A stretch of 38,353 bases of DNA from Opitutia bacterium (GTDB lineage: Bacteria; Verrucomicrobiota; Verrucomicrobiia; Opitutales; T3Sed10-336), in assembly GCA_050506795.1 (NCBI GenBank), contig JBJHCF010000047.1, positions 1 through 38,353 of the forward strand, in the 5' to 3' direction. The notes below the pieces were generated by a model. It was not told the origin of the DNA. It worked only from the letters and a program-made list of their open reading frames with translations, and searched no databases. The translations under genes were made by a program, and so were the position numbers. Positions 8,290 through 35,257 of the stretch are shown one piece after another; position 1 is the stretch's first letter, and each line of letters begins with the position of its first letter.

Positions 8290-8457
8290 CTGGTGGGCGG
8301 CGCTCCCGCGCCGCCGCCGAACGCCCAACGACGACCGCCGCAAAACCCGTACCCCCCTTGGAGGGCGGCGGGGATGGACCTCCCGGGCGCCCGGGAACGT
8401 AATCGTCGCCGTTCCCGGTCGGGACGCGTACGGCCATGGCGGAGCATGGCCCTCCAG
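8290..8457 (-). repeat. GGAGGG-type REP cluster including an inverted, internally shortened copy of the ~124-bp doublet
   Basis: 8358-8457 is the reverse complement of the 12437-12560 unit with a deletion; 8290-8316 is a further half-unit. Confidence 0.85.
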
Positions 8458-8671
8458 CGGAGAGAATCGCGTCGATGGGTGTGTTCGCATTCAAACCGCC
8501 TGTGACAGGCGCCCGAGGAAAAGCGATAAAATTCTGTAAAATATTGTTCTGTAAACAGTTCTACCTTGCTATCGCAGCGAGCCTCCGCTCTCATCAATTA
8601 TTGATCTGTCAGGACAGATCCTATCGAACACCGATGACAGCTCCGGCCCCCCACCGGAAACCCGTCAAATC

Positions 8672-9658: not shown

Positions 9659-9717
9659 ACCGAGGTACGCATGGATACGTAGATCACCGCCTCGGCGTAG
9701 GACACGCAATCCACCCC

Positions 9718-9752
9718 CTGGAGGGCCATGCTCCGCCATGGCCGCGAGCGGC
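9718..9752 (+). repeat. Half copy of the GGAGGG-type REP doublet
   Basis: CTGGAGGGCCATGCTCCGCCATGGCCGCGAGCGGC is identical to the start of the unit at 12437. Confidence 0.85.
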
Positions 9753-9818
9753 GCCGGTGAAATTCCGAACGAAGCAACCGCTTGACTTGGTTCGAAATCT
9801 AGTCCACATTCGAAAGAG

Positions 9819-11125: not shown

Positions 11126-11328
11126 AACAATCTCTAACTTAGTCCACCTTAGTCTTTCGTGTCAACCCGAAACCCGTAAAGAGACGTCCCGAAATCTAAC
11201 CGTCCCCGAACGAGCGGCTAATCGTCCTAATAATCCGCCTCTTGTGGCGAATCCAATCCCGTTTTTCTCACACGGAGGCGATCCCGTTTCCCACCGGCCA
11301 AAACGCGAATCACACGCACCCCGCACCC

Positions 11329-11440
11329 CTGGAGGGCCATGCTCCGCCATGGCCGCGAAGGGCCTCCCAAACGGGAACGGCGACGATTCCGTTTCCGGAC
11401 GCCCGAGTTGGCCCATTCCCGCCGTTGCGCCGCCCTCCAG
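11329..11440 (+). repeat. Diverged copy of the GGAGGG-type REP doublet
   Basis: Starts CTGGAGGGCCATGCTCCGCCATGGCCGCG, contains ACGGGAACGGCGACGATT, ends GCGCCGCCCTCCAG. Confidence 0.85.
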
Positions 11441-12418: not shown

Positions 12419-12436
12419 ACGAGCAGCTGACCACCT

Positions 12437-12762
12437 CTGGAGGGCCATGCTCCGCCATGGCCGCGAGCGGCCTCCCTAACGGGAACGGCGACGATTACGT
12501 TTCCGGGCACCCGGGTCGCCCATCCCCGCCTCCGCGGCGGCGCGGGAGCGCCGCCCTCCACACACGGTTGAGCACCGTGCGCCGAACGGAACCGGCAATC
12601 CCAAACCTCCGCCACACCCAACCCCGCGATTCGCACCCTGGAGGGCCATGCTCCGCCATGGCCGCGGGCGGCGTCCCACACGGGAACGGCGACGATTTCG
12701 GTTCCGGGCGCCCGGGTCGCCCATCCCCGCCTCCGCGGCGGCGCGGGAGCGCCGCCCTCCAG
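12437..12762 (+). repeat. Two tandem ~124-bp GGAGGG-type REP doublets (REPIN-like)
   Basis: 12437-12560 and 12638-12762 are near identical, each bounded by inverted TGGAGGGC/GCCCTCCA. Confidence 0.9.
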
Positions 12763-12844
12763 CGTCTCGGGCGCTTGGCGGCACGGGGCTTGTTTTCGTG
12801 CGAATCAATCGCTGGTTCCAAAACGGAAACGATTGGAAAATGTG

Positions 12845-13732: not shown

Positions 13733-13942
13733 AACCACGAAGGACACGAAGTGCACGAAGGGTCGGAGCTTCCGGATGGGCGCTGGGGTGATTGCTACTC
13801 GGTTAAGGTTTACTTTCCTGGCACCCAGGAATAAAAACCTCGATAGCGATTTCGATAGCGATCCCGATACCGATTTATGGCCGCGTCACCTGCCTTTACC
13901 GCCAACCCCCTCACCTTCGTGTCCTTCGTGCTCTTCGTGGTG
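13733..13942. repeat. Inverted pair of 9-bp-period CACGAAG triplets enclosing a CGATNN hexamer run
   Basis: ACCACGAAGGACACGAAGTGCACGAAGG ... CCTTCGTGTCCTTCGTGCTCTTCGTGGT, with CGATAGCGATTTCGATAGCGATCCCGATACCGAT at about 13840-13875. Confidence 0.8.
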
Positions 13943-14096: not shown

Positions 14097-15077
14097 CTAC
14101 TTTTCGAACACCGATTCCAGGTCGGGCGCGTCCAGCAAGCGCTCGCTCCAATCTTCGAGTTCCGAGGTCGTCGCACCGTTCAACCGCGATTCCGCCCATT
14201 CCGGAAGCGTGCCGAAGCGACGGGAGAGCTGCCGCCGCAGAATGGCCACACCCTCTTCACGGCGCCCTTCTTCCAAACCTTCCTTTCGTCCCTCCCGAAT
14301 AAGTTGCTCTGCGAATGTCATCACGTCCTTCTTGATTTCTCCAATTTTTAGTCTCTCAAGCCTACCCCGGAAATCCTCAAAGTCAACCTCCCCGCCGCTA
14401 CCCATCACATACTCCAGGCAGGTCCGCACAAACCGCGAATCGCTTTCCTTCAACGCCCCATTCAACAATGGCGCAAGCTCCTCCATCCGGCCCACCCAGT
14501 CACGCTCGCGCACCACCCGCATCACAGCCAGAATCGCCCGAAGCAGAACGTCCCCGCGCAGCTTGTCTATCGGCAATTCCGCCAGGTCCACCAGATGAAA
14601 CTCGAAATCCGGGACAAACCCGTCGAATCCGCAACCGGCATCCCGGGGCAAATCGATCAATGACCGAAACCGCCGGGAAAAACGCCACCCTTTCACACTC
14701 TGGTGCAAGACCACCGGCAAAACCGGAGGGAGGACGGTACCGCTCGGAGCGGATTTCAACTCGGCCTCCCAGATCCGCATCATGTAGCGCAACAAACGTA
14801 ACGCCATCCAGCGATCCGGTTCGCTCTGATGTTCGAACAGACAATACAGAAACAACTCCCTGTTTTTCCACTGAACCGTAAAGAGCAAATCGGCATCACG
14901 CTCCCGCAGCGTCTCATCCACAAAACTCCCGTCCTTTCGCTCCAATCGATCCCAGTCCAGAAGCAATCCCAATTCAGGCGGCAGGTAAGTCCGGAAAAAC
15001 TCCGCCGCGGTCGTTGTGCGACCGAACGTCTCCTTGAAGAACTTATCGTGGGGATTGTGCAGCGGGGGTTCTGACAT
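14097..15077 (-). CDS. Rpn family recombination-promoting nuclease (YhgA/Transposase_31) with DUF4351-like C-terminus
   Basis: NPHDKFFK, SFVDETL, DLLF, LFEHQS, MALRLLRY, LPPVLPVVL and MTFAEQL..EG motifs; start at ATG 15077. Confidence 0.93.
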   Translation of the reverse strand: MSEPPLHNPHDKFFKETFGRTTTAAEFFRTYLPPELGLLLDWDRLERKDGSFVDETLRERDADLLFTVQWKNRELFLYCLFEHQSEPDRWMALRLLRYMMRIWEAELKSAPSGTVLPPVLPVVLHQSVKGWRFSRRFRSLIDLPRDAGCGFDGFVPDFEFHLVDLAELPIDKLRGDVLLRAILAVMRVVRERDWVGRMEELAPLLNGALKESDSRFVRTCLEYVMGSGGEVDFEDFRGRLERLKIGEIKKDVMTFAEQLIREGRKEGLEEGRREEGVAILRRQLSRRFGTLPEWAESRLNGATTSELEDWSERLLDAPDLESVFEK

Positions 15078-15194
15078 GCCTCGGGGTGAAGGTTTCACAA
15101 CATCGTCGGAAAGGTTCCCGGCGAAGCAAGTAAAAAACCGACCCGGATACTGGCCACAACGATTACAAAAGGGACCTCTCCCGATAATGATTTT

Positions 15195-15257
15195 CTCACA
15201 CGGAGTCACGGAGCCATGTCCCGTAAAAATCTCTGTGTCTCCGTGCCTCCGTGTGAG
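15195..15257. repeat. Palindromic CACGGAG-family element
   Basis: CTCACACGGAG(TCACGGAG) ... (CTCCGTGC)CTCCGTGTGAG with 11-bp perfect outer arms. Confidence 0.8.
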
Positions 15258-15333
15258 CCCAATTTCCGCTGTATTTTTTGCTTTATCAAACAATGAACCG
15301 CCTTAACCGAGTGCCATTCCGTCTTTGCCTCTA

Positions 15334-21144: not shown

Positions 21145-21238
21145 CGGCAGGGACGGAGCCCTGCCCTCCAAATTTACCGCAACCCTGGAGGGGGCGGTTC
21201 CACCCGCGCCTCGGCAGGGACGGAGCCCTGCTCTCCAG
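21145..21238. repeat. GGAGGG-type REP cluster between convergent genes
   Basis: GGCAGGGACGGAGCCCTGCYCTCCA occurs twice, with CTGGAGGGGGCGG between them; overlaps the 3' tail of the downstream ORF. Confidence 0.7.
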
Positions 21239-23831: not shown

Positions 23832-23850
23832 TCCCGCGATTTAAAGGGCT

Positions 23851-24010
23851 AGGCGAAGCCTCAGACCAGCAGTAGTGCACGCATCTTGCGTGCGAACCTC
23901 ACGCTGGCCTGCGACGAGCTCAGCCGAGTCGAAGCGTGACCTACTTCTTTCAACCTGATTTGCAAAACTTGATTCACCTACAACAACTTTTCGTGTTTTA
24001 GGACTCTAGA
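23851..24010. repeat. Bipartite intergenic element, family I copy 1
   Basis: Ends shared with 35100-35257 (19/19 and 41/47 nt); the core is a GTAG...CTAC REP doublet. Confidence 0.8.
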
Positions 24011-24053
24011 CCCGGTCGCCTCCGGAAACCCGCTCGGGCCGGCGCCTCACTCG

Positions 24054-25244
24054 TCAACGTCGGCCGCGGCGGCCTCCGGCGGTGGCGGCGGAGCCGCTTT
24101 GCCAGGGCATGGTGAGATCGCCAAAGTCGAAGCGTTCGATCGGACGTCCCAGTTCGGCTTCGATTTTTTGGAAAGTGAGCAGATCCCCCGGGGTCACGAA
24201 CGACAGCGCTTCCCCGTCGGCCTCCGCCCGAGCCGTGCGGCCGACCCGGTGCACATAGTCTTCGAAATTGTTCGGAAGGTCGTAGTTGATCACATGGGTG
24301 ACATCCTTGATGTCCAATCCCCGGGCCGCGATGTCGGTGGCGATCAGAATGGCAAAGTCGCCGTTGCGGAAGGATTCCAAAGCGCGGGTACGCTCTTTTT
24401 GATCCCGGTCGCTGTGCAGCACCCCGACGCGGAAGCCGTCCGAGGAGATCACTTCGTGAATAAAGTCGGCCTCGACCTTCATCCCACAGAACACCATCAC
24501 CGAGGTCATGTTCGGCAAGGCCAGCAATTCGCGGAGGAGGCGCGGTTTGCGCATCTTTTCCACATAAAAGGCGCCCTGCTGGATTTTCTCCGGCGTGCGG
24601 ATGGGGGGTGAGACATCGACCCGGATCGGATCATTGAGCAAACGCGCCGCCAGGCGTTCGATGGGCGCGGGAAAGGTGGCCGAAAACATGAGGGTCTGCC
24701 GCTTTCCCTTGCCGAGGAAGCCAATGATCTGGTGGATCGCCGGCATGAACCCCATATCCAGCATGCGGTCGGCCTCATCGAGGATGAACACGTCGACGGC
24801 GCGCAGATGGGTGTTCTTTTGCTGCAGATGATCGATCAGGCGTCCCGGGGTCGCCACAATAATTTCCGGCTCCGAATCCAGCGCCTGCAACTGCTTGCGG
24901 TAAGGCACGCCCCCAAGCAGGAGGGCCACCCGAAGGTCGGCGTACCTGGCCAATTGCTGAATGTTTTCATCCACTTGCGCCGCCAGTTCCCGGGTCGGAC
25001 TGAGAATCAACACCCGAGGTCCGGCATAGACCTCCCCGGGATCGCGCTGCAGGTAGCGTTGCAGGGACGGCAGCACGAAGGCGGCGGTTTTTCCTGTGCC
25101 GGTCTGGGCGATGCCGATGACATCGCGTCCGTCGGCAATGGGCTCTATGGTTTGGCTTTGAATCGGTGTGGGTTTGGTAAACCCCAGGTCGTCTATGGCC
25201 TTGCGGATCCGTTCATCGAACGGGTAATCGGAAAAAGAATTCAT
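24054..25244 (-). CDS. DEAD-box RNA helicase (RhlE-like)
   Basis: PTPIQ, AQTGTGKT, PTRELA, TPGRL, DEAD, SAT, ARGLD and HRVGRTAR motifs. Confidence 0.96.
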   Translation of the reverse strand: MNSFSDYPFDERIRKAIDDLGFTKPTPIQSQTIEPIADGRDVIGIAQTGTGKTAAFVLPSLQRYLQRDPGEVYAGPRVLILSPTRELAAQVDENIQQLARYADLRVALLLGGVPYRKQLQALDSEPEIIVATPGRLIDHLQQKNTHLRAVDVFILDEADRMLDMGFMPAIHQIIGFLGKGKRQTLMFSATFPAPIERLAARLLNDPIRVDVSPPIRTPEKIQQGAFYVEKMRKPRLLRELLALPNMTSVMVFCGMKVEADFIHEVISSDGFRVGVLHSDRDQKERTRALESFRNGDFAILIATDIAARGLDIKDVTHVINYDLPNNFEDYVHRVGRTARAEADGEALSFVTPGDLLTFQKIEAELGRPIERFDFGDLTMPWQSGSAATAGGRRGRR

Positions 25245-25310
25245 TACAAATCAGGTTTTCGTTTGGCAGGTTTTTGGGGCGGAATCAACGGGAATTTACC
25301 CCGGGAGGCG

Positions 25311-25703
25311 TCAGCGCGATTGCAGGCGAATACGGTCGATTCCGTTGCGACGGACCTGGTCCATAACAAAGGTCACTTCCCGCAGCGGTGTGCTTTCGTC
25401 CGCCATGAGCAGCACGGAAACCTCTCGTGCCACCGGTCGGAGGTCGGCCAAAAAAGCAGTCAACTCCTCGCGCTCGACCCGGTTGCCGTCGATGAAGAAG
25501 GCGCCCTCGGCGTCGATTCCGATCACCAGGGATTCGTCCACCGCGCCGGCGCCGGCGGTTTCGATTTGGGGCAGAACGAGATTCAGCGCCTGCAGTTCGC
25601 GAAACTGCATGGTCATGAGAAAAAAGAAAATGAGTATGGCCAGCACATCGATCAAAGGAACGATGTTGATTTCGGGGCGACGCCGTTTGGGCTTAAGGCT
25701 CAT
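25311..25703 (-). CDS. exbD: ExbD/TolR family biopolymer transport protein
   Basis: INIVPLIDVL..L.FF TM motif and LMAD; coupled to the upstream exbB-like gene. Confidence 0.88.
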   Translation of the reverse strand: MSLKPKRRRPEINIVPLIDVLAILIFFFLMTMQFRELQALNLVLPQIETAGAGAVDESLVIGIDAEGAFFIDGNRVEREELTAFLADLRPVAREVSVLLMADESTPLREVTFVMDQVRRNGIDRIRLQSR

Positions 25704-26263
25704 GCCTCGTCGTCGGTTCCGTACATCAGGTCGATCAGCGACTCAATCCGCACGGCGTAGGTCTCCACCCGTCGCTGCAGGTAACCATTGGCCACCAGGG
25801 AGGGAATGGCGATGGCCAACCCGATGACGGTGGTGGTGAGTGCCAGCGCCACCCCCTCCACAAAAGCCTGTGGCTCGGGGAGCCCGGTGTCCGGGGCAAT
25901 GTTCGCGAACACCTGGATCAGCCCTGTGACCGTTCCCAGGAGCCCGAGAAGGGGCGCGGCACCGATCACCATTTCCAACAGCACCAATCCCCGCTCCAGG
26001 CGGTTGATTTCCACCCGCGCCACCGCCTTGGCGGCGCTTTTATCAGCGGCATTATTTCGGGAGAACCGCACCACCCGGCCCAGGGCCGAACGCTCGTTCG
26101 GTTCGACCGCCTCGCCCCGGGAAATCTTTTCCACCAGCACCGGCGGGCAAACGCGGTGGCTGAGGAGACCGTAAAGGCGCTCGACCACGATAAACACCGC
26201 CACCAGCGAACAAATCGCCAGCGGGTAGATGAATACCCCCGCGCCTTCAATCAGCTCCATCAT
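25700..26263 (-). CDS. exbB: MotA/TolQ/ExbB proton channel protein
   Basis: APLLGLLGTVTGLI and ALTTTVIGLAIAIP motifs. Confidence 0.88.
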   Translation of the reverse strand: MMELIEGAGVFIYPLAICSLVAVFIVVERLYGLLSHRVCPPVLVEKISRGEAVEPNERSALGRVVRFSRNNAADKSAAKAVARVEINRLERGLVLLEMVIGAAPLLGLLGTVTGLIQVFANIAPDTGLPEPQAFVEGVALALTTTVIGLAIAIPSLVANGYLQRRVETYAVRIESLIDLMYGTDDEA

Positions 26264-26390
26264 GGTCTCGGCAGCCTCCCCGACATCAACACATCAACGA
26301 AGACGCCTCCGCTCGTCAACCGGCGAAGACCGGGTGCTCCGGATCGCTCGTCCATCAAATCATCAATTGTCCGGAACGCCATGCTCTGAT

Positions 26391-26507
26391 TTAGTCCCTT
26401 CATTCTGAAATCCTGCGCAAATCGCACATTTTTTTTGGAGGGCAATCCCGGCTTGCCGGGATTGCCCACCACGTAACTCCTTATTGGGGCCGGATCCGCC
26501 GGGTTGG
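26391..26507 (+). repeat. Bipartite intergenic element, family II copy A
   Basis: Ends shared with 29745-29892; core hairpin GGGCAATCCCGG-CTTG-CCGGGATTGCCC. Confidence 0.75.
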
Positions 26508-26522
26508 TTCCGGTTCATTCGG

Positions 26523-27122
26523 TCAGTGAACGTAGTGGAGTGAGCGCGCCGTCGCCGCCACCTGCTCCTCGCCCTCCAACAGCTCGGCGATGGGATCCCA
26601 TTTTCCGCTGAGCAAAGCCGTGCGGGCGGAATCCCGCAACTCGGCCGGGTACTCCCGATCACCGCAACGGATGCTGCGGTTTTCCACGTCCAACTCGATT
26701 TGCACGTTCGGATCCGCCTCGATGGTGGCGGCCATCTCCCTGATATCCTGACGCGAAGCCGCGAAACAGGGCATGCCCAGCGTGATGCTGTTGCCAAAAA
26801 AGATCTCGGCGTAGCTTTCGGCGACGATTCCCCGGAAACCGGCTTTGTGCAGGGCCTGCGGGGCGTGCTCGCGGGAACTGCCGCAACCGAAGTTCGACCC
26901 GCTCAGGAGGATTGTGGCGCCGGCGTGCCGAGGATCGTTGAGCGGATGCTTCTTGTCGCTGCCGTCTTCGTTCTTGCGCACGTCGTAAAACGCGAATTCA
27001 CCGAGACCGTCAAAGGTGATGCACTTCATAAAACGGGCCGGGATAATCCGGTCGGTGTCGATGTCATCACCCGGGATATAAACTCCCCGGCCGGTAACTT
27101 TGCTGATTTTTTCCAATGCCAT
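26523..27122 (-). CDS. leuD: 3-isopropylmalate dehydratase small subunit
   Basis: DIDTDRIIPARF, NFGCGSSREHAP and AEIFFGN motifs. Confidence 0.97.
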   Translation of the reverse strand: MALEKISKVTGRGVYIPGDDIDTDRIIPARFMKCITFDGLGEFAFYDVRKNEDGSDKKHPLNDPRHAGATILLSGSNFGCGSSREHAPQALHKAGFRGIVAESYAEIFFGNSITLGMPCFAASRQDIREMAATIEADPNVQIELDVENRSIRCGDREYPAELRDSARTALLSGKWDPIAELLEGEEQVAATARSLHYVH

Positions 27123-27134
27123 GATTCTCTCCTT

Positions 27135-28565
27135 TTAGACCTCTGCGAGATTGGGACTTCCCACGCCGAACACCTCGCGGGCGTCGCTGACCTGACCGGT
27201 CACCGCGGCGGCGGCCACCATGAGCGGGCTCATCAGGATGGTTCGTCCGATGGGACTTCCCTGACGCCCTTTGAAATTACGATTGCTGGAGCTGGCGCAC
27301 AGTTGATCGCCCACCAGCTTGTCCGGGTTCATGGCCAGGCACATGGAACAACCCGCGCCGCGCCACTCGAATCCGGCTTCACGGAAGACCTTATCGATGC
27401 CCAGCTCTTCGCAGATTTTCCCCACTCCCATGGAACCCGGCACCGCGATGGCTTTCACTCCCGGCGCCACATGGCGACCTTTGAGGTAGCTCGCCACCTC
27501 CTGGAAATCGGTCAGGCGCCCGTTGGTGCAGCTCCCGAGAAACGCCACATCGATAGGTGTGCCCTTGATCGGACTGCCCGGCTTTAGTTTCATGTGCTCC
27601 AGGGCCTCGATCACCCCTTCCCGCTGCTCCTCCTCGACCTTCTCCGGATCGGGAATGGTTTGGTCGATGAAAACCCCCTGTCCCGGAGTGATGCCCCAGG
27701 TCACGCTCGGCCCAATGTCCTCGGCGCGGAAATTGACCACGTCGTCATACTCACAATCCGAATCGGACGCCAGGTTTCTCCAGCGCTCGACGGCTTCGTC
27801 CCAATCCTTTCCTTTTGGGGAGTACGGACGCCCCTTCAGGTACTCGAAGGTCTTTTCGTCCGGGTTCACGTACCCGACCCGGGCGCCGCCTTCGATGGAC
27901 ATATTGCAGACCGTCATCCGCTCCTCCATATTAAAACGGTCAAAAACCTCGCCACCGTACTCGTAGGCGAATCCCGTGCCGCCCTTAACGCCGAGCTTGC
28001 GGATGATATAGAGGATGACGTCCTTGGCGTAGATCCCCGGCGCCAGTTTCCCGTCCACATTAATGCGGCGCAGCTTGGGTTTGCTGATCGCCATGGTCTG
28101 GGTGGCGAGCACATCGCGCACCTGGCTGGTGCCGATGCCGAAAGCGATGGCGCCGAAGGCGCCGTGGGTGGAAGTGTGCGAGTCGCCGCAGGCGATGGTG
28201 GTTCCGGGCTGGGTGATCCCCTGCTCGGGACCGACCACGTGGACGATGCCCTGCCGGCCGGAAGCGATGTCGAAGTAGGTCACCCCGAACTCCTCGCAGT
28301 TGCGCCGCAGTTCCTTGATCATCGCGTCCGCCAGGGGGTCGGAAAACGGCTCGTTGCGCTCGTCGGTGGGCACGATGTGATCCACCGTGGCGAAGGTGCG
28401 CTCCGGAAACCGCACCTTCAATCCAAGTTCGCGCAGCATGCCGAATGCCTGCGGACTGGTCACCTCGTGAATGAGGTGGGCGCCGATCAAAAGCTGGGTG
28501 TGGCCGGAGGACAACTCACGCACCGCGTGAGCCTCCCAGACCTTGTCAAACAAACTTTTAGCCAT
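27135..28565 (-). CDS. leuC: 3-isopropylmalate dehydratase large subunit
   Basis: [38 protein letters not shown] and [10 protein letters not shown] motifs. Confidence 0.98.
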
Positions 28566-28737
28566 AATAGACAGTTCCTTACGTTCAGATCAAACGAACC
28601 AGCGTAGCCGGTCACGGCCTTCCGCGCAACCGGAAAACGCAGAGCGGGAGAAACCGGAAAACACGGAACCGAACGCAACCGACGATGATCGTCCTCGACG
28701 TTTGACCCGCGGCCGGCAAGGTGACATCATGGGATTC

Positions 28738-29673
28738 ATGAAAGCGACAGGTCAAGACGGCGAAAGGGCGAAACCGGTGTTGATATCAGGAGCGTCCGGC
28801 ATGGTCGGACGGGCGCTGGCTGCTCGGCTTTCCGAGCACGGTTTTTCGGTGCGTCGCCTGGTGCGCGAAAAACCCGATGCCGGCCCGGACGCGATTTTCT
28901 GGGATCCGGCAACCGGCGAAATCGAAGCGGAGAAACTGGACGGAGTCGGCGCGGCCATCCATCTGGCCGGAGAAAACATCGCCGCCGGTCGCTGGACCGC
29001 CGCCAGAAAAAAGCGAATTCTGGACAGCCGGACCCAGGGAACCACGCTCCTCACCCAAACGCTGGCGAAACTTAAGAACCCGCCCGAAGTTTTGGTTTCC
29101 GCCTCCGGGATCAACTACTACGGCGACCGGGGCGACGCCGTCCTGACCGAAGACGAGCCGGGCGGAAACGGTTTTTTGGCCGACGTGTGCCGTCAGTGGG
29201 AAGCGGCCACCCAACCAGCGGAGAAAGCCGGCATCCGAGTGGTTCGGCTGCGAATCGGTCCGGTGCTGTCACCCGAAGGCGGCATGCTAAAAAAAATCCT
29301 CCCTCCGTTCCTGGCCGGAGCCGGAGGGAAAATCGGCAACGGCCGCCAGTTTATTTCCTGGATCGCCCTGCCCGATTTGCTGACGGTACTTGAATACGCG
29401 CTCGACAACTCCAACATTCAGGGGGCCTACAACGTGGTCGCCCCCAATCCGGTCACCAACGCGGAATTCACCCGCACCCTGGCCAAAGTCCTCTCCCGTC
29501 CGGCCTTCATTCCGGTACCGGCGATCGGCCTGCGCCTTGCCTTTGGTGAAATGGCGGACGAAATGCTACTTTCCTCCACCCGCGCCCTTCCCCAACGGCT
29601 CCAGGACGCAGGCTTTCAATTTCAATACCCGGAACTGGAGAGCGCATTGCGCAAAGTCCTGGACAAGGACTGA
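28738..29673 (+). CDS. TIGR01777 family NAD-dependent epimerase/oxidoreductase (YfcH-like)
   Basis: ISGASGMVG, HLAGENI..RWT, SR..GT, WE and G.Q..SWI motifs; start at 28738 or 28729. Confidence 0.92.
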   Translation: MKATGQDGERAKPVLISGASGMVGRALAARLSEHGFSVRRLVREKPDAGPDAIFWDPATGEIEAEKLDGVGAAIHLAGENIAAGRWTAARKKRILDSRTQGTTLLTQTLAKLKNPPEVLVSASGINYYGDRGDAVLTEDEPGGNGFLADVCRQWEAATQPAEKAGIRVVRLRIGPVLSPEGGMLKKILPPFLAGAGGKIGNGRQFISWIALPDLLTVLEYALDNSNIQGAYNVVAPNPVTNAEFTRTLAKVLSRPAFIPVPAIGLRLAFGEMADEMLLSSTRALPQRLQDAGFQFQYPELESALRKVLDKD

Positions 29674-29744
29674 TCCCCGACCGAAATAAGCGCCGTTTAC
29701 TCCAATCTGAATGGCGCTCCGTTAAGCCGGTTCATCGAAGCAGC

Positions 29745-29892
29745 TTAGTCCCATATTCCTCAAATCTTGCGCGAATCGCGCAAGATTTTCTGGAGGGCAA
29801 CGCTCCGCCGTTGCCGCTGGGCGTTCGGGCGGCAACGGCGGAGCGTTGCCCTCCAGTGGGACCACTTATTGGTACCGGCTCCGCCGGGTTGG
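29745..29892 (+). repeat. Bipartite intergenic element, family II copy B, containing a perfect REP doublet
   Basis: Hairpin AAATCTTGCGCG/CGCGCAAGATTT and a 28-bp perfect inverted pair at 29790-29856; further GGAGGG REP remnants follow up to about 30005. Confidence 0.8.
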
Positions 29893-30062
29893 GTATACGC
29901 GAATCAAATTGGTTCTTCCCCTGGAAGGCCGTGCTCACATGCGCGCGCACCGACGGAGCGGGAGCACCGCCCTCCAGAAAAGGGAGGGCGCGATCCCTAG
30001 CGCGATTCGGTTTCATCAAACGATCAACCGGCTTAACCGAGCAGCATTTACCCAAAGCCCCC

Positions 30063-31295
30063 TTACCCGCGCCGGATGAAATCCTTCTGCGCGGCGTGGC
30101 GGGCCCGCAGGCGCAGGCCCTGAAGCCGGATGAAGCCAGTGGCGTCGTTCTGGTTGTAGCTGCTGGCCACGCCTTCCATGGAAGCGATGTGCGGATCGTA
30201 AAGCGAGTACGGGGACTGGCGTCCACAGGTGATTACGTTGCCTTTGTACAACTTCAGCTTCACCGTGCCGGTGACCGGCTTTTGGCTCTCGTCAATGAAA
30301 GCCTGCAACGCCTCCCGCTCGGGAGCATACCAGAATCCGTAGTAAATCAGCTCCGCGTAACGTGGCATCAAGGTGTCCCGCAAATGCGCGAGTTCGCGGT
30401 CCATGGTCAGGCTTTCCACCTGCCGGTGCGCATGCATCAGAATGGTGCCGCCGGGGGTTTCATAGACGCCGCGGCTTTTCATGCCAACGAACCGGTTCTC
30501 CACCAGGTCGACCCGGCCAACCCCGTGTTTCCCGCCCAGCCGGTTCAGCTCCTTGAGCACCGCGGCCGGGTTCATCCGTTTTCCGTTCACCGCCACGCAG
30601 TCGCCGGACTCGAACTCGAGTTCGACGTATTCCGCCTCATCGGGCGCGTCCTCCGGTGAAACCGAAAGTTTGAACATGCTCCGGTTCTCCCTGGTCGTCG
30701 GATCGAACCACGGATCCTCCAGAATCCCCGCCTCGTAGGAAATGTGCAGGAGATTGCGGTCCATCGAATAGGGTTTTGACGCGCTGGCCTCGACATCGAT
30801 GCCGTTGGCCCGGCAGTAATCGATCATCTCGGTCCGGCCCGGAAAGGTCTGACGAAACTCATCCAGCCGCCAGGGGGCTATGACCTCGATTTCCGGCGCC
30901 AAGGCGGTGTAGGTCAGCTCAAAACGGCACTGGTCGTTCCCTTTTCCGGTGGCGCCGTGGGAAACGGCATTGGCGCCGGTTTTCTCCGCCAGTTCGATTT
31001 GCGCTTTGGCGATGAGCGGACGCGCGATGGAAGTGCCCAGGTAATACTGTCCCTCGTAAATGGCGTTGGCGCGAATCATCGGGTAGATAAAGTCGCTGGC
31101 GAACTCCTCCACCAAGTCAAGCGTGTGGTGCTCGACCGCCCCGGTGGCGCGCGCCTTCTCCGGCAGACCGCCCAGTTCCTCCTCCTGCCCAATATCGGCG
31201 GCGAACGTCACCACCTCAGCCTGATAACGTTCCTGAATCCACTTGACGATTACGGAGGTGTCCAGACCCCCTGAATAGGCGAGAACCACTTTCAT
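30063..31295 (-). CDS. argG: Argininosuccinate synthase
   Basis: [30 protein letters not shown] and [12 protein letters not shown] motifs. Confidence 0.98.
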
Positions 31296-31455
31296 AGCCG
31301 CTCATGATCATTCACCCCCCAAACCCTGCCAAGGAAATTCTCCGCCGACCGGCGAATGATTTCCCGGTATTCCAGGAGGGTACCAGGTTCGATCTTCAAT
31401 CGATCGAATAAACCCCTTGAAACCGTCCCGGGAATGTGATCTCAATCCCGTTTTT

Positions 31456-34400
31456 TCAAGCGTCGCCGTCCAGCAGGAACGCCAGGTCGTCGCGACTGAG
31501 GGAAGCGCTGCCTTTGCCCTTTTCATTGGATCCAAGCACCCGTTGGTAGAGGGCTTTTTTGTCGGCTTTTAATTCCGCGATCTTTTCCTCGATGGTGCCG
31601 CGCATGGAGAGGCGCTGGATGAGCACCTTCCTTTCCTGGCCGATACGGTGGGCGCGGTCGGAAGCCTGGCTTTCCACTGCGGGATTCCACCAGGGATCGA
31701 GATGGATCACGTGGTTGGCGCGGGTCAGATTGAGCCCGACGCCGCCCGCTTTCAGGCTGAGAAGAAATACCGCGGGACCGGCGCCGGACTGGAAATGCTG
31801 CACCCGTTCCCGTCGTTGTTTCTGGGTCGTTTTCCCCTCCAGACGCACCGACTCCACTCCGGCCTGTTTCAGGCGGGCATCGAAAAGGTCGAGCGCCTTG
31901 ACGAATTGGGAAAACACCAGCACCGCGTTGCCTTCGTCCAGCAACTCGGTCACCGCCTCCAGGGCGAAATCGAATTTGGGTGACGCCGGTTTTTCCTTCG
32001 GGTCCAGCAACGCCGGGGAAACACAGAGCAAACGCAGGCGGTTGAGCGCCGACAACGCCGCCACCCCCGCCCGCGCCGGGGTCAGGCGTTTGAAGGCCGC
32101 CGCCACCTCCTCGCGTACTCTCGCCACTTCGCGGACGTAGAGCGCCTTCTGACGAGGAGCCAGCTCCAGAACAATATCGGTCTCGGTTTTTTCGGGAAGC
32201 TGCGACAAAACCGCCGTCTTGGTCCGGCGCAGTACAAACGGGCGCGAGCGCGCCAGAATCCGGCGCTCCATCTCTTCGCCGCCGCCGCGTTTTGCTTTGA
32301 TGTCCAAATCGTCAAAGATTCCAGGCAGGGCCAGGTCCAGGATGGCACGGTATTCACCGAGATGGTTCTCCACCGGCGTTCCCGTCAGACAAATCCGGCA
32401 CTCTGCGGTTAGTTCCCGCACCGCCCGGTGACGGGCCGAAGCGCGGTTCTTCACCGCCTGAGCTTCGTCGAAAATCAGCACGTTAAACGTTTGCTTGCGC
32501 AATAACTCCCGGTCACGCCGTGCGGTTTCATAAGTGGTCAGCACCACATCGACGCCTTTGAAGTCGGCCGATCGCTCCCCTCCCATGTATTCCAGCACCG
32601 TCAGCCCGGGCGCAAACCGCTCGATTTCCGAACGCCAGTTAAAAATCAAACTCGCCGGCGCCACCACCAGGTGCGGGCGTTTCGCCGTGCCGCGGTAACG
32701 CGTCACGGCGCCCTCCTTTAACGCCTGCAGCAGTGCGATCGCCTGCACGGTTTTTCCCAGGCCCATGTCATCCGCCAGGCAGGCGCCGAAGCGGTGACGG
32801 TAAAGAAACGCAAACCAGTCGTATCCGGATTTCTGATAATCACGGAGCTCCGCCCGCAGTCCCTGGGGCAAAGGGGTGGTCTCCAATTCGCGAAAGCGCG
32901 CCAGCGATTCGAGCACCTTGCGCCCCTCGGCCGGCAGCTTCAGGGAAACGCCCAGCCGCTGAAGGTCCAGCCATTCGAAGATCCGCAAGCGGGGGACCTG
33001 GAACCGGTGGTCATCAATGCCTTTCCGGGTCTCACGCGACTGCAACAGACTCCGGGCTTCGCGCAGGCGGTTCAGGGAATCGACATCGATGACCACCGGC
33101 CCCGTTTTCGTTTGGGCAATTCCGTTGCCGTCGGCGATCGCCTCCCAGTCCGCGGTTGATAAAGCTCGTCCGGCCAGGCGGATTTCCGGTTTGAGTTCGA
33201 ACCAGTCGCGCTTGTCCTTTGCCTCGCTCACCTCCACCGAGATCGCCAGGGCCTCGGTTTCCACCGGATGACCATTCAACAAGAGAGACACCCCGCGTTC
33301 GCGGCACTCGGCGAATATCACCGAAAGGTTTCGTGACAAAGCCGGCGCCGAAACCGTCAACTTGCCGCCTCCACGAAACCGATCGCGCATCGTCCCGGGA
33401 CAGAAGAGCGCCGCCAGATAGAGATCCCAATAAACCACGTCCCGAAAAGTGACTTCGGCGAATTCCCATGGCGTCGAGCCGCCTGGTTGGGAATTGGCGA
33501 AACACCATTGGCAGGAGGCTTGCAGTTCCGATTCCAAAGCCTGCAATACCCGCCGGGTATACCGTGCCGCATTTCGACGCGGCTCCGAAGCGACGATTTC
33601 CCGGGCAAGACTCCGCCGCTTTTTCGGATCCGGCTCCCCGGCAAATCCAACCAGGTCATGGGCCAAGCGCTCCATCCGGGCGCGGCCGGCAAAAAGACTG
33701 CGATCGCCCTCAGCCGCGAAAATATGATCCAGGCTTTGCGCCGGCGTCTCCAACGGCACCGAGAATCCCTTTCCTTCCCAATGCAGGCTGGCAACGTAGC
33801 CGCCGAACTCCTTGACCTCGTCGAATCGCAAACCCGGAGCCGATCCGCTCAACTGCGGAGTCACCTTCCGAGACCCGTCCAGGAAGGTCACTCCTTCGTA
33901 CGTCTGCTGTTTCGGAGATCGGTCGAAAAAGTAGTCGGCCAACGGATTGTAAACCGTGGCGGGCAATTTCCAGGGAACAAAGTGGAGCGGTTCGGTCGGC
34001 AGGTCCGAATGCCCCTCCGCCAACAAGAGGTAAGGAAGGAGACTCAATTTCTGAACCCCCGGAGCTGAAGTCAAAAGCACCAGACGGCATTCCCGGGTTA
34101 ACCCGACCTCGGGACTGAGTCCGCAGAGAACTTCCGTCGAATCCCGATCGCCCCCAAACTCAAACTCGGCGCCGACTTCATCCTCCTTCCGAATCAGCCT
34201 GGCCGAAACCTGCCGCTCACGCTTGTCGATTCCGGTGATCCGGCTCCATTTGCCCCCGAGACGAAGCCACACCGATTCGGGGTCCCTTTTCAGCTCCAGG
34301 TGCTCGAAAACCGCCCTGACGGCATCTCCGGACAGATTGATCTTCGCACAGGTTAACTGCAGTTTCGGATCCCACGGCTCTTCCCGGACCCTGTCCCCCG

Positions 34401-34929
34401 AGATTTTCAAGGCGATCGCGCTCCAATGCCGATCGTCCTCGAACGCCAGTCCGATGGCAACGAACGCCGGGTCACGGCGCGGTTCACTGGAAGGAACCGG
34501 TTTGGGGTTCGTTCGGATGGCACGGGTGTTAATCGAAGGCTTTTCCTTCTTCCCATAAATTCCGGATCGCAGTTCTTTTAAATAGGCCTCGGAATGGGGA
34601 CGGTTTAAAAACTGCGTGCCCTTGGTGGCGGCAAAAAAGGCCGCCGCGGCCGCCACCATGTGTTTGCAGGTCGCGCCTGACGCGGCGTCCTGACAGGTGC
34701 ATTGGCAACGCAAACTCCCTTCAACCGCATCCATCGTCACCCGATACCGCCGAACCCCGAGAACCACCGCGCAAAGCTTTTTACCCTCCGAATCCCATCG
34801 AAACTCCAAGACCCTCTGCCGCTGCCAATATTCGAGACCCCGACGCGTCCGCATACCGTCGGCCAGCCAGTAAACGGTGTGAGGAGAAAGCGAAAAAATC
34901 GGATGATTGGTATTAACCTCCTGGGTCAT
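31456..34929 (-). CDS. SWIM zinc finger + SNF2-family ATPase/helicase
   Basis: CQCTC..CKH SWIM motif; LRDYQ, LADDMGLGKT, DEAQ, LTGTPVEN and WWNPAVESQASDRAHRIGQ motifs; start likely ATG 34929. Confidence 0.93.
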   Translation of the reverse strand: MTQEVNTNHPIFSLSPHTVYWLADGMRTRRGLEYWQRQRVLEFRWDSEGKKLCAVVLGVRRYRVTMDAVEGSLRCQCTCQDAASGATCKHMVAAAAAFFAATKGTQFLNRPHSEAYLKELRSGIYGKKEKPSINTRAIRTNPKPVPSSEPRRDPAFVAIGLAFEDDRHWSAIALKISGDRVREEPWDPKLQLTCAKINLSGDAVRAVFEHLELKRDPESVWLRLGGKWSRITGIDKRERQVSARLIRKEDEVGAEFEFGGDRDSTEVLCGLSPEVGLTRECRLVLLTSAPGVQKLSLLPYLLLAEGHSDLPTEPLHFVPWKLPATVYNPLADYFFDRSPKQQTYEGVTFLDGSRKVTPQLSGSAPGLRFDEVKEFGGYVASLHWEGKGFSVPLETPAQSLDHIFAAEGDRSLFAGRARMERLAHDLVGFAGEPDPKKRRSLAREIVASEPRRNAARYTRRVLQALESELQASCQWCFANSQPGGSTPWEFAEVTFRDVVYWDLYLAALFCPGTMRDRFRGGGKLTVSAPALSRNLSVIFAECRERGVSLLLNGHPVETEALAISVEVSEAKDKRDWFELKPEIRLAGRALSTADWEAIADGNGIAQTKTGPVVIDVDSLNRLREARSLLQSRETRKGIDDHRFQVPRLRIFEWLDLQRLGVSLKLPAEGRKVLESLARFRELETTPLPQGLRAELRDYQKSGYDWFAFLYRHRFGACLADDMGLGKTVQAIALLQALKEGAVTRYRGTAKRPHLVVAPASLIFNWRSEIERFAPGLTVLEYMGGERSADFKGVDVVLTTYETARRDRELLRKQTFNVLIFDEAQAVKNRASARHRAVRELTAECRICLTGTPVENHLGEYRAILDLALPGIFDDLDIKAKRGGGEEMERRILARSRPFVLRRTKTAVLSQLPEKTETDIVLELAPRQKALYVREVARVREEVAAAFKRLTPARAGVAALSALNRLRLLCVSPALLDPKEKPASPKFDFALEAVTELLDEGNAVLVFSQFVKALDLFDARLKQAGVESVRLEGKTTQKQRRERVQHFQSGAGPAVFLLSLKAGGVGLNLTRANHVIHLDPWWNPAVESQASDRAHRIGQERKVLIQRLSMRGTIEEKIAELKADKKALYQRVLGSNEKGKGSASLSRDDLAFLLDGDA

Positions 34930-35099
34930 GGTCGAATTAAGAATTCGCGACAATGCGTGCACTGGCAAATCCCGAATCTCTCCGGATACAGGGCCTCTTC
35001 ACGAAATTGCCAAAAGCCGCAGGAAAAGGCTTTTGAATTCAGGAACATTGGAATCACTGGCAAATCCGGAATTCCCTCGGGGATTAGATTAATCCAGCG

Positions 35100-35257
35100 A
35101 GGCGAAGCCTCAGACCAGGAAAAATGACACCGCAGAGAGGGGAAGGTCGCAGAGAAGGACAAGACATACCGAATGATTTCTCTGCGACCTTCCAACCTCT
35201 GCGGTGCCAAAAAACTTGACTCAACTACGACAACTTTTTCGGTTTTAGGACTCTAGA
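35100..35257. repeat. Bipartite intergenic element, family I copy 2
   Basis: Ends shared with 23851-24010; the core is a long CGCAGAG hairpin with a 16-bp perfect inner stem (35141-35156/35178-35193). Confidence 0.8.

Follow-up and report, generated by a model that had tools for sequence, protein, structure and literature searches.

Gene-less miniatures of an unannotated insertion sequence carry unrelated palindromes in an Opitutia genome

The 38,353-nt contig C47 of an Opitutia bacterium (JBJHCF010000047.1; hereafter the window, i.e., the whole stretch of DNA analysed) contains two short intergenic segments with closely similar ends and unrelated palindromic interiors. Our results show that these segments are gene-less miniatures of an unannotated insertion sequence (IS) of 1.8-1.9 kb, whose two unlike ends they have kept. 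Miniature IS derivatives are an already known kind of element; new here are the minimal element, the cut position as read from empty sites, and the repeated capture of repeats of the repetitive extragenic palindromic (REP) type as cargo. We consider it likely that the miniatures are non-autonomous elements moved in trans by the predicted Rep_trans-like tyrosine enzyme of their parent, which would nick and join single strands at CT^AG (the caret marking the cut), with the unrelated palindromes travelling as passive cargo. On balance, it also seems probable that they are members of a very large class of bacterial transposons that is unannotated and whose tyrosine enzyme adopts a TATA-binding protein (TBP)-like, Rep_trans-type fold and uses a chemistry unlike that of the DDE, HUH, DEDD, serine or tyrosine recombinases, and in which ends of ~70-90 bp suffice for movement and repeatedly carry the REP-type repeats of other families, even between genera. 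If so, a second initiator fold, unrelated to the first, would have given rise to rolling-circle-type transposition, in a family that is large and yet annotated as hypothetical.

The miniature elements, their copies and their insertion sites

The two segments of the window share an identical block of 19 nt at 23851 and 35100 (19/19) and, at the opposite end, a block of 47 nt with 87% identity between copy 1 and copy 2 (41/47), in agreement with an earlier note on this DNA. Their interiors (94 and 92 nt) are as unrelated as that note had claimed, with a global identity of 50% that does not exceed the value for shuffled sequences (48 +/- 4%); the GTAG..CTAC doublet described for copy 1 and the CGCAGAG hairpin described for copy 2, with arms of 32 nt, are both present. 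Each copy also lies, as reported, downstream of a minus-strand gene, to the left of its stop codon, which is only 3 nt away from copy 2. With corrected limits, the elements and their parts are as follows:

About 23847-24007, plus strand: miniature element copy 1 (core A with insert), 161 bp, left end decayed
23851-23868, plus strand: copy 1 left end, a short stem with a GAA loop followed by a conserved CAGAC motif
23872-23944, plus strand: copy 1 core A, a doublet (GTAG..CTAC) of the REP that also flanks a Y1 (RAYT) gene on contig C16
23908-23931, plus strand: hairpin insert of ~24 nt within core A, with approximate limits; 5 of the 21 copies with core A have it
23964-24007, plus strand: copy 1 right end; in the long form, this block directly follows the transposase stop codon
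35096-35254, plus strand: miniature element copy 2 (core B), 159 bp; the orthologous site of the relative G001 lacks the element
35096-35116, plus strand: copy 2 left end, with a 5-bp stem and 3-nt loop at 35099-35111
35125-35209, no strand assigned: copy 2 core B, a long hairpin with paired CGCAGAG repeats and their inverted copies
35211-35254, plus strand: copy 2 right end, with the terminal letters GGACTCT
35255-35256, plus strand: target-site AG, retained in the G001 empty site

In the genome of the studied DNA (G000; 4.94 Mb, 97.8% complete), the 19-mer of the left block matches exactly at 3 places, with one mismatch at 12 and with two mismatches at 24, and profiles of the ends, applied at loose thresholds, yielded 39 right-end and 41 left-end matches. 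Among the 38 right-end matches above 14.4 bits, 31 have a same-strand left end upstream within 260 nt and thus represent complete elements. Because the 19-mer recurs genome-wide and the ends pair in 31 of 38 cases, the likeness seen in the window is not due to chance, and the two ends occur together rather than independently of each other, as the earlier note had supposed. The complete copies (n=31) are dispersed, have unique flanks and fall into four core types. Core A is found in 21 of them (16 plain copies of 132-139 bp and 5 of 151-161 bp with the ~24-nt insert), core B in seven (152-160 bp), core C in two (161 and 193 bp) and core F in one (231 bp). The most similar copies show 94-98% identity, and a few additional copies have one end only. 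Strong folding of the core (z < -2) is seen in 27 of the 31 copies, compared with 3 of 40 random pieces. The near-equal length of the two window copies is a coincidence, since copy 1 is a 137-bp core-A type element enlarged by the insert, whereas copy 2 has core B. The notion of a same-length core could thus not be upheld, with complete copies measuring 132-231 bp in G000 and about 80-380 bp in metagenomes. Two unusual arrangements were observed in G000 as well, namely a pair of miniatures joined right end to right end (C10:967-1332) and a right end that runs into a partial left end (C32:6515).

Empty sites, whose existence the earlier note had raised, are present in relatives. Thirteen sites of G000 were compared with these genomes, with copy 1's own site not among the testable ones. 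In G001, the locus orthologous to copy 2 lacks the element, and both for this copy and for one on contig C27 the left flank joined to the right flank reproduces the G001 empty site when the cut is placed before the first AG and after the last CT. There is no target duplication at either site, and only the shared AG is ambiguous. Among eleven further sites compared with G001 and G002, the C27 site was the one base-precise empty site and two sites (C17 and C13) showed imprecise absences; at the C1 site, the orthologous gene ends at the same stop codon and the element is absent, and the remaining sites had no usable orthologue. Conversely, two of eight copies in relatives have an empty site in G000, at lower identity. 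There were no paralogous empty sites within G000 for 31 joined flanks, and no joint skipping copy 1 or copy 2 in the contigs of run X1, the single DNA run listed as containing this DNA; no RNA run was listed. Four G000 copies overlap the TAG stop codon of an open reading frame (ORF) on the opposite strand, and the G002 orthologue of one of them stops at the same codon.

The element is preceded by CT in all long forms (31/31) and in 98 of 121 loci among the matches listed in a metagenome scan, which returned at least 126 left-end matches in at least 121 loci (reversed control, 0). The left flanks in G000 end in CC (9), CT (9), GC (6) or other dinucleotides (7), with several of the GC flanks resembling a subfamily that is three bases longer. 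Because CC is found at the C27 site in both genomes, the flanking letters suggest a relaxed C(T/C)^AG target, with decay as the alternative. The word CTAG is scarce in G000 (1,000 observed vs 2,737 expected). A core-B copy in G002 matches copy 2 at 93% identity, compared with 72-81% for the genes that the two genomes share, and one G000 copy has a counterpart of 94% identity in another genus (G006). These values hint at recent or horizontal spread of the elements, with mis-binning as a caveat.

The gene-carrying form and its predicted enzyme

The earlier note had proposed a non-autonomous element, and a long version sharing both ends indeed exists. This form (L037), found in the same-genus genome G002, measures 1,855 bp and contains one ORF of 540 amino acids (aa) between the same two ends, arranged in the order CT^AG, left end, leader of ~190 bp, ORF, stop codon, right end, CT^AG. 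The two ends are unlike each other and thus lack terminal inverted repeats. A scan of GTDB contigs identified 40 related loci, several of them multicopy, from groups that include Verrucomicrobia, Chloroflexi, Gammaproteobacteria, Myxococcales, Bacteroidetes and Actinomycetota. We located the left end in 31 of these 40 loci (21 CT^AG and 10 CT^AA), the right end in 35 (31 CT^AG, 3 CT^AA and 1 mis-call) and both ends in 29, mostly 1.79-1.94 kb apart. The right-end pattern matched in 3 of 40 relatives, and its exact form had no match in GTDB contigs. Viral contigs contained no full left end, and we regard their 33 matches to the junction pattern as chance. The gene is present in 2 of 11 other genomes of the taxonomic family, and homologues of the 540-aa protein amount to no fewer than 8,000 clusters when grouped at 90% identity and to 9,611 representatives at 50%, fragments included. 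Plasmid records mostly annotate the gene as a hypothetical protein, and searches in listings of openly accessible papers, which extend neither to ISfinder nor to subscription journals or the supplements of preprints, brought up no account of the transposon family; a paper on Frankia (PMC6735867) and PMC5650641 had no bearing on it.

In many long forms (L041-L045, L048, L050, L052-L054 and L059), the leader carries an inverted copy of the element's own left end, which co-varies with that end (CTAA vs CTAG) and could have a role in regulating or guiding it. Two further loci, L082 (G002:C245) and L081 (G009:C90), encode distant homologues of the transposase (E 1e-46 and 4e-33) and share a different leader hairpin, suggestive of a second subfamily with other ends.

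The 540-aa protein has no match in Pfam, NCBIfam, PHROG or the PDB sequences, and its neighbours in the Atlas are unnamed clusters. None of 86 family members matched the Rep_trans profile (PF02486) at E <= 0.01 or any HUH, DEDD, serine or tyrosine-recombinase family. A structure model was built from the 86-row alignment (pLDDT, the predicted local distance difference test score, 90.6). Its first-ranked, though weak, Foldseek match is RepSTK1 (4CIJ; E 6.5e-4, prob 0.97). In VIA searches with the predicted model, residues 10-385 matched TBP (Z 8.8, root-mean-square deviation (rmsd) 4.2, 181 aligned residues) and residues 390-514 a winged helix (Z 9.9, rmsd 2.7, 90 aligned residues), and the matches in a viral library were TBP-like and inovirus proteins, including A0A345MNV4, which the available part of one study (PMC13107129) lists as a Rep_trans protein. 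The parent enzyme is thus predicted to combine a TBP-like fold with a winged helix, similar to the rolling-circle initiator RepSTK1.

The non-gap rows of alignment A1 show strong conservation of D30 (67/68), E259 (78/80), K333 (83/84), Y335 (82/84), K337 (78/84), R343 (81/84) and E345 (78/85), and D30, E259, Y335 and E345 are located on predicted strands. As far as the accessible portion of the respective study goes, the active site of RepD comprises D46, D142, R189-x-Y191-x-K193 and R212-x-E214 (PMC4797284), a series that D30, E259, K333-x-Y335-x-K337 and R343-x-E345 match in order. In the model, Y335 is the predicted nucleophile and D30, E259 and E345 are the predicted metal ligands. The right junction, GACTCT/AG, resembles the nick site of the pT181 family, given as TACTCT/AATAG in the excerpt at hand (PMC8407400).

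Cargo cores, proposed route of movement and rival explanations

The cores of the miniatures resemble repeats that also exist outside them. Cores B and F consist of paired short repeats with inverted partners, of which free copies exist, and repeats built in the same way flank the six PDDEXK_3 genes of G000, also known as GxxExxY genes. The idea that core B itself flanks these genes was rejected: their repeats have its architecture, yet none of the 6 genes showed the CGCAGAG variant. Core A, and only core A, is an inverted REP doublet that matches REPs beside the gene of a REP-associated tyrosine transposase (RAYT); this REP occurs as four half-copies on the two sides of the Y1 gene of C16, none more than 440 nt from it, and others are free-standing. 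The accessible text of an earlier survey reports GTAG repeats in Verrucomicrobia (PMC3733652). Core F retains the right arm of core B and one partial copy retains the tail of core A behind another REP, which indicates nested insertion.

Minimal forms are found elsewhere. Genome G337 contains a 93-bp miniature composed of the left end, the last codons of the gene and the right end in 11 of 16 loci examined (18 matches), two of which share a flank, beside 3 full copies, and miniatures co-occur with the family gene both there and in G002. The listed metagenome left-end matches (n=126) comprise 49 miniatures, 15 that lead into the gene, 47 others and 15 that are too short. Hairpin-free miniatures of 81-93 bp are multicopy outside G000, and B-like and F-like cores recur in the unrelated metagenome miniatures L154, L265 and L166. 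Only 15 of 36 distinct metagenome cores, among the matches listed, fold with z < -2, which rules out that a hairpin core is required for movement. The hairpin repeats of the window copies are thus likely passive cargo borrowed between the ends, which would offer REP-type repeats a route to spread without a transposase of their own. We also found a five-unit head-to-tail array with right end^left end joints (L224) and tandems of a miniature and a full element (L061/L062), as would fit either rolling-circle copying that runs past the end or repeated insertions into the end of the element itself. The same kind of small hairpin module occurs within the unrelated cores of the metagenome miniature L261 and of the G000 copies with cores A and C.

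In the pathway we propose, the enzyme would bind the hairpins of the ends and introduce a nick into the left-to-right strand at both of them, between CT and AG, staying linked to the 5' end through Y335 by a 5'-phosphotyrosine bond. A single-stranded circle with a right end^left end junction would then close and insert at a C(T/C)^AG site, with rolling-circle copy-out being slightly favoured over peel-and-paste. Internal deletion could generate minimal elements of 80-95 bp, in which REP doublets and other mobile palindromes may land or recombine; each composite would subsequently spread as a subfamily, and later nested insertions may replace part of its core. The miniatures set the minimal cis sequences at 21 nt for the left end and 46 nt for the right end, and further define where the cut falls and which tyrosine is the candidate for catalysis; this makes the mechanism open to direct tests with oligonucleotides.

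Several points weigh against this reading. Protein and profile searches did not find the family transposase in G000, although unassembled repeats are possible, and the contigs of run X1 contain no full parent at >=80% likeness, just one low-depth end fragment; current mobility in G000 is therefore hypothetical. None of 300 further genomes from the phylum contained the exact left-end pattern, and no circle or nick was seen in the data, which consist of the contigs of one run. Base-precise empty sites were obtained at just 2 of the 13 G000 sites compared, neither of the G001 empty sites reads CTAG, and CTAG is kept at only 4 of 31 left junctions vs 20 of 31 right junctions in G000, for which either the target rule or decay may be the reason. 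RepSTK1 is a weak fold match (TM 0.18 for the query and 0.34 for the target, rmsd 16.6), and 4CIJ is missing from the top 50 VIA rows, where winged-helix matches take up the places. The equivalence with RepD residues rests on motif order, not on superposition, the likeness to the pT181-family nick site spans just 6-7 letters, and the Rep_trans motifs I, II and III show only a partial fit (QxE for RxD, no G, no E) when compared with the five motifs set out in the available part of a review (PMC5714925).

Other enzymes could in principle account for the ends. It is unlikely, if conceivable, that the parent protein is a double-strand, site-specific recombinase of the IS110 or IS607 type acting on a 2-4-bp CTAG/AG core, in which case the miniatures would still be non-autonomous. 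Such an enzyme would fit the lack of terminal inverted repeats and target duplications, the shared junction core and the head-to-tail arrays, but the 86 family members lack the corresponding recombinase families, the structure matches are RepSTK1, TBP and inovirus-type proteins, and both ends form or adjoin hairpins. We consider it improbable that resident RAYT (Y1) enzymes move the composites through their REP cores, with the IS ends hitch-hiking. G000 does contain 16 Y1_Tnp matches and no detected family transposase, most of its cores fold strongly, and core A corresponds to a RAYT-flanking REP; however, both base-precise empty sites belong to core-B copies, which lack GTAG, the limits of these sites coincide with the IS ends rather than those of the core, and coreless miniatures are multicopy in G337.

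Equally doubtful is the exchangeable core of the earlier note, if taken to mean that a dedicated recombination step actively swaps cores between cassette ends. End variants are common to several core types, the tree of the ends is not sorted by core (core A needs 7 changes, with a shuffled mean of 8.7, and core B 5), and the hybrid cores mentioned above exist. However, the tree is poorly supported (3 of 27 branches starred), keeping A or B together as a single origin is not rejected (approximately unbiased test, p-AU 0.08 and 0.09; 70 columns), the junctions between core and end share no crossover word, and the hybrids can be explained by nested insertion and ordinary recombination; moreover, 21 of 31 copies share core A, and every core type forms a subfamily that spreads separately. 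A structured-RNA scaffold retained for a host function, also raised in that note, is very improbable. Of the 29 copies that have a long ORF to the right, 20 do face a gene's 3' end there (mechanical ORF calls), but an Rfam scan of the window gave no match, and relatives differ in whether a given copy is present. Pairing in the left stem reaches 98.8%, and a single compensated pair was seen, in two related rows; the right end folds weakly. Among the matches listed, the left loop reads GNA or its reverse complement TNC, i.e., 8 of the 64 possible triplets, in 77 of 121 metagenome loci, as expected for a DNA hairpin readable on either strand. GNA loops are specially stable in DNA. The left hairpin is thus better read as acting in the form of DNA than as an RNA scaffold.

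Neighbouring repeats and comparison with known systems

The window contains other repeats. Its first 525 nt (1-525) form a tandem array of REP-type appearance with an alternating spacing of 86/89 bp and a conserved block of 30 nt. A second REP-like family, starting with TGGAGGGC, is found at 8290-8460, 9705-9753, 11316-11405, 12424-12768, 21145-21237 and 29790-29983, and 3 of its 77 matches in the genome are near ends of the studied element. An inverted pair of ACCACGAAG-type repeats at 13734-13941 is built like the PDDEXK_3-flanking repeats, and a YhgA-like (Transposase_31) gene with a DUF4351 domain occupies 14097-15293 on the minus strand. Elsewhere in G000, a CTAG-bounded palindrome of ~36 bp (C31:59944-59980, C10, C57 and C63) has 23 matches, of which 5 adjoin the studied elements; it may be a minimal miniature inverted-repeat transposable element (MITE) that shares CTAG sites. 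The copies on C61 and C38 are followed by the same sequence of ~35 nt, starting with TGTAGCCC (4 genome matches), perhaps another IS end, and an 18-nt repeat with 84 matches in G000 occurs a few bases after 5 element ends.

MITEs derived from IS630 at CTAG are small, gene-less and often situated at TAG stop codons, traits shared by the miniatures studied here; they differ in having terminal inverted repeats and a duplicated TA, whereas our elements have unlike ends and no duplication. An assignment to MITEs of the IS630/IS5 type was therefore rejected, as was one to IS110/IS1111, for which there was no DEDD transposase match. Elements of the IS200/IS605 family are mobilized by an HUH Y1 enzyme of about 150 aa, and the palindrome-associated transposable elements (PATEs) are gene-less derivatives that keep their ends alone. 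In the available descriptions, they resemble our elements in their subterminal hairpins at both ends, the lack of target duplication and the existence of gene-less, ends-only derivatives, but the long form studied here has other ends and encodes a 540-aa non-HUH protein, and none of the 16 Y1_Tnp loci of G000 contains an end of the element. The REPIN/RAYT system and mosaics similar to bacterial interspersed mosaic elements, as far as the accessible part of the source describes them (PMC3733652), share the GTAG-tagged REP doublet of core A, which flanks a RAYT gene in G000; here, by contrast, the REP is cargo only, the moving unit reaches to the IS ends and the other cores are not GTAG REPs.

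IS91, which moves through a single-stranded circle by means of an HUH enzyme according to the available part of a review (PMC5714925), provides a close parallel in general organization. Its family likewise lacks terminal inverted repeats and target duplications, has two unlike ends and a short target word, and carries one gene related to a rolling-circle initiator. However, the IS91 enzyme is of the HUH Y2 type, whereas the 540-aa protein has no HUH match and a predicted TBP-like Rep_trans fold, and ends and target differ as well. The Rep_trans initiators and MOB_T relaxases (PF02486; RepD/RepSTK1), in the portion of the literature at hand (PMC4797284), share the predicted TBP-like fold, the K-x-Y-x-K and R-x-E motifs, three acidic residues and a CT^A nick-like junction, and Rep-Arvir, in the accessible text (PMC13107129), likewise has a winged helix of MarR-like type that follows its catalytic domain. 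In these partial accounts, such proteins start plasmid or virus replication or conjugation and are not described as transposases, whereas the protein studied here, 540 aa in length and without a Pfam match, stands alone between transposon ends.

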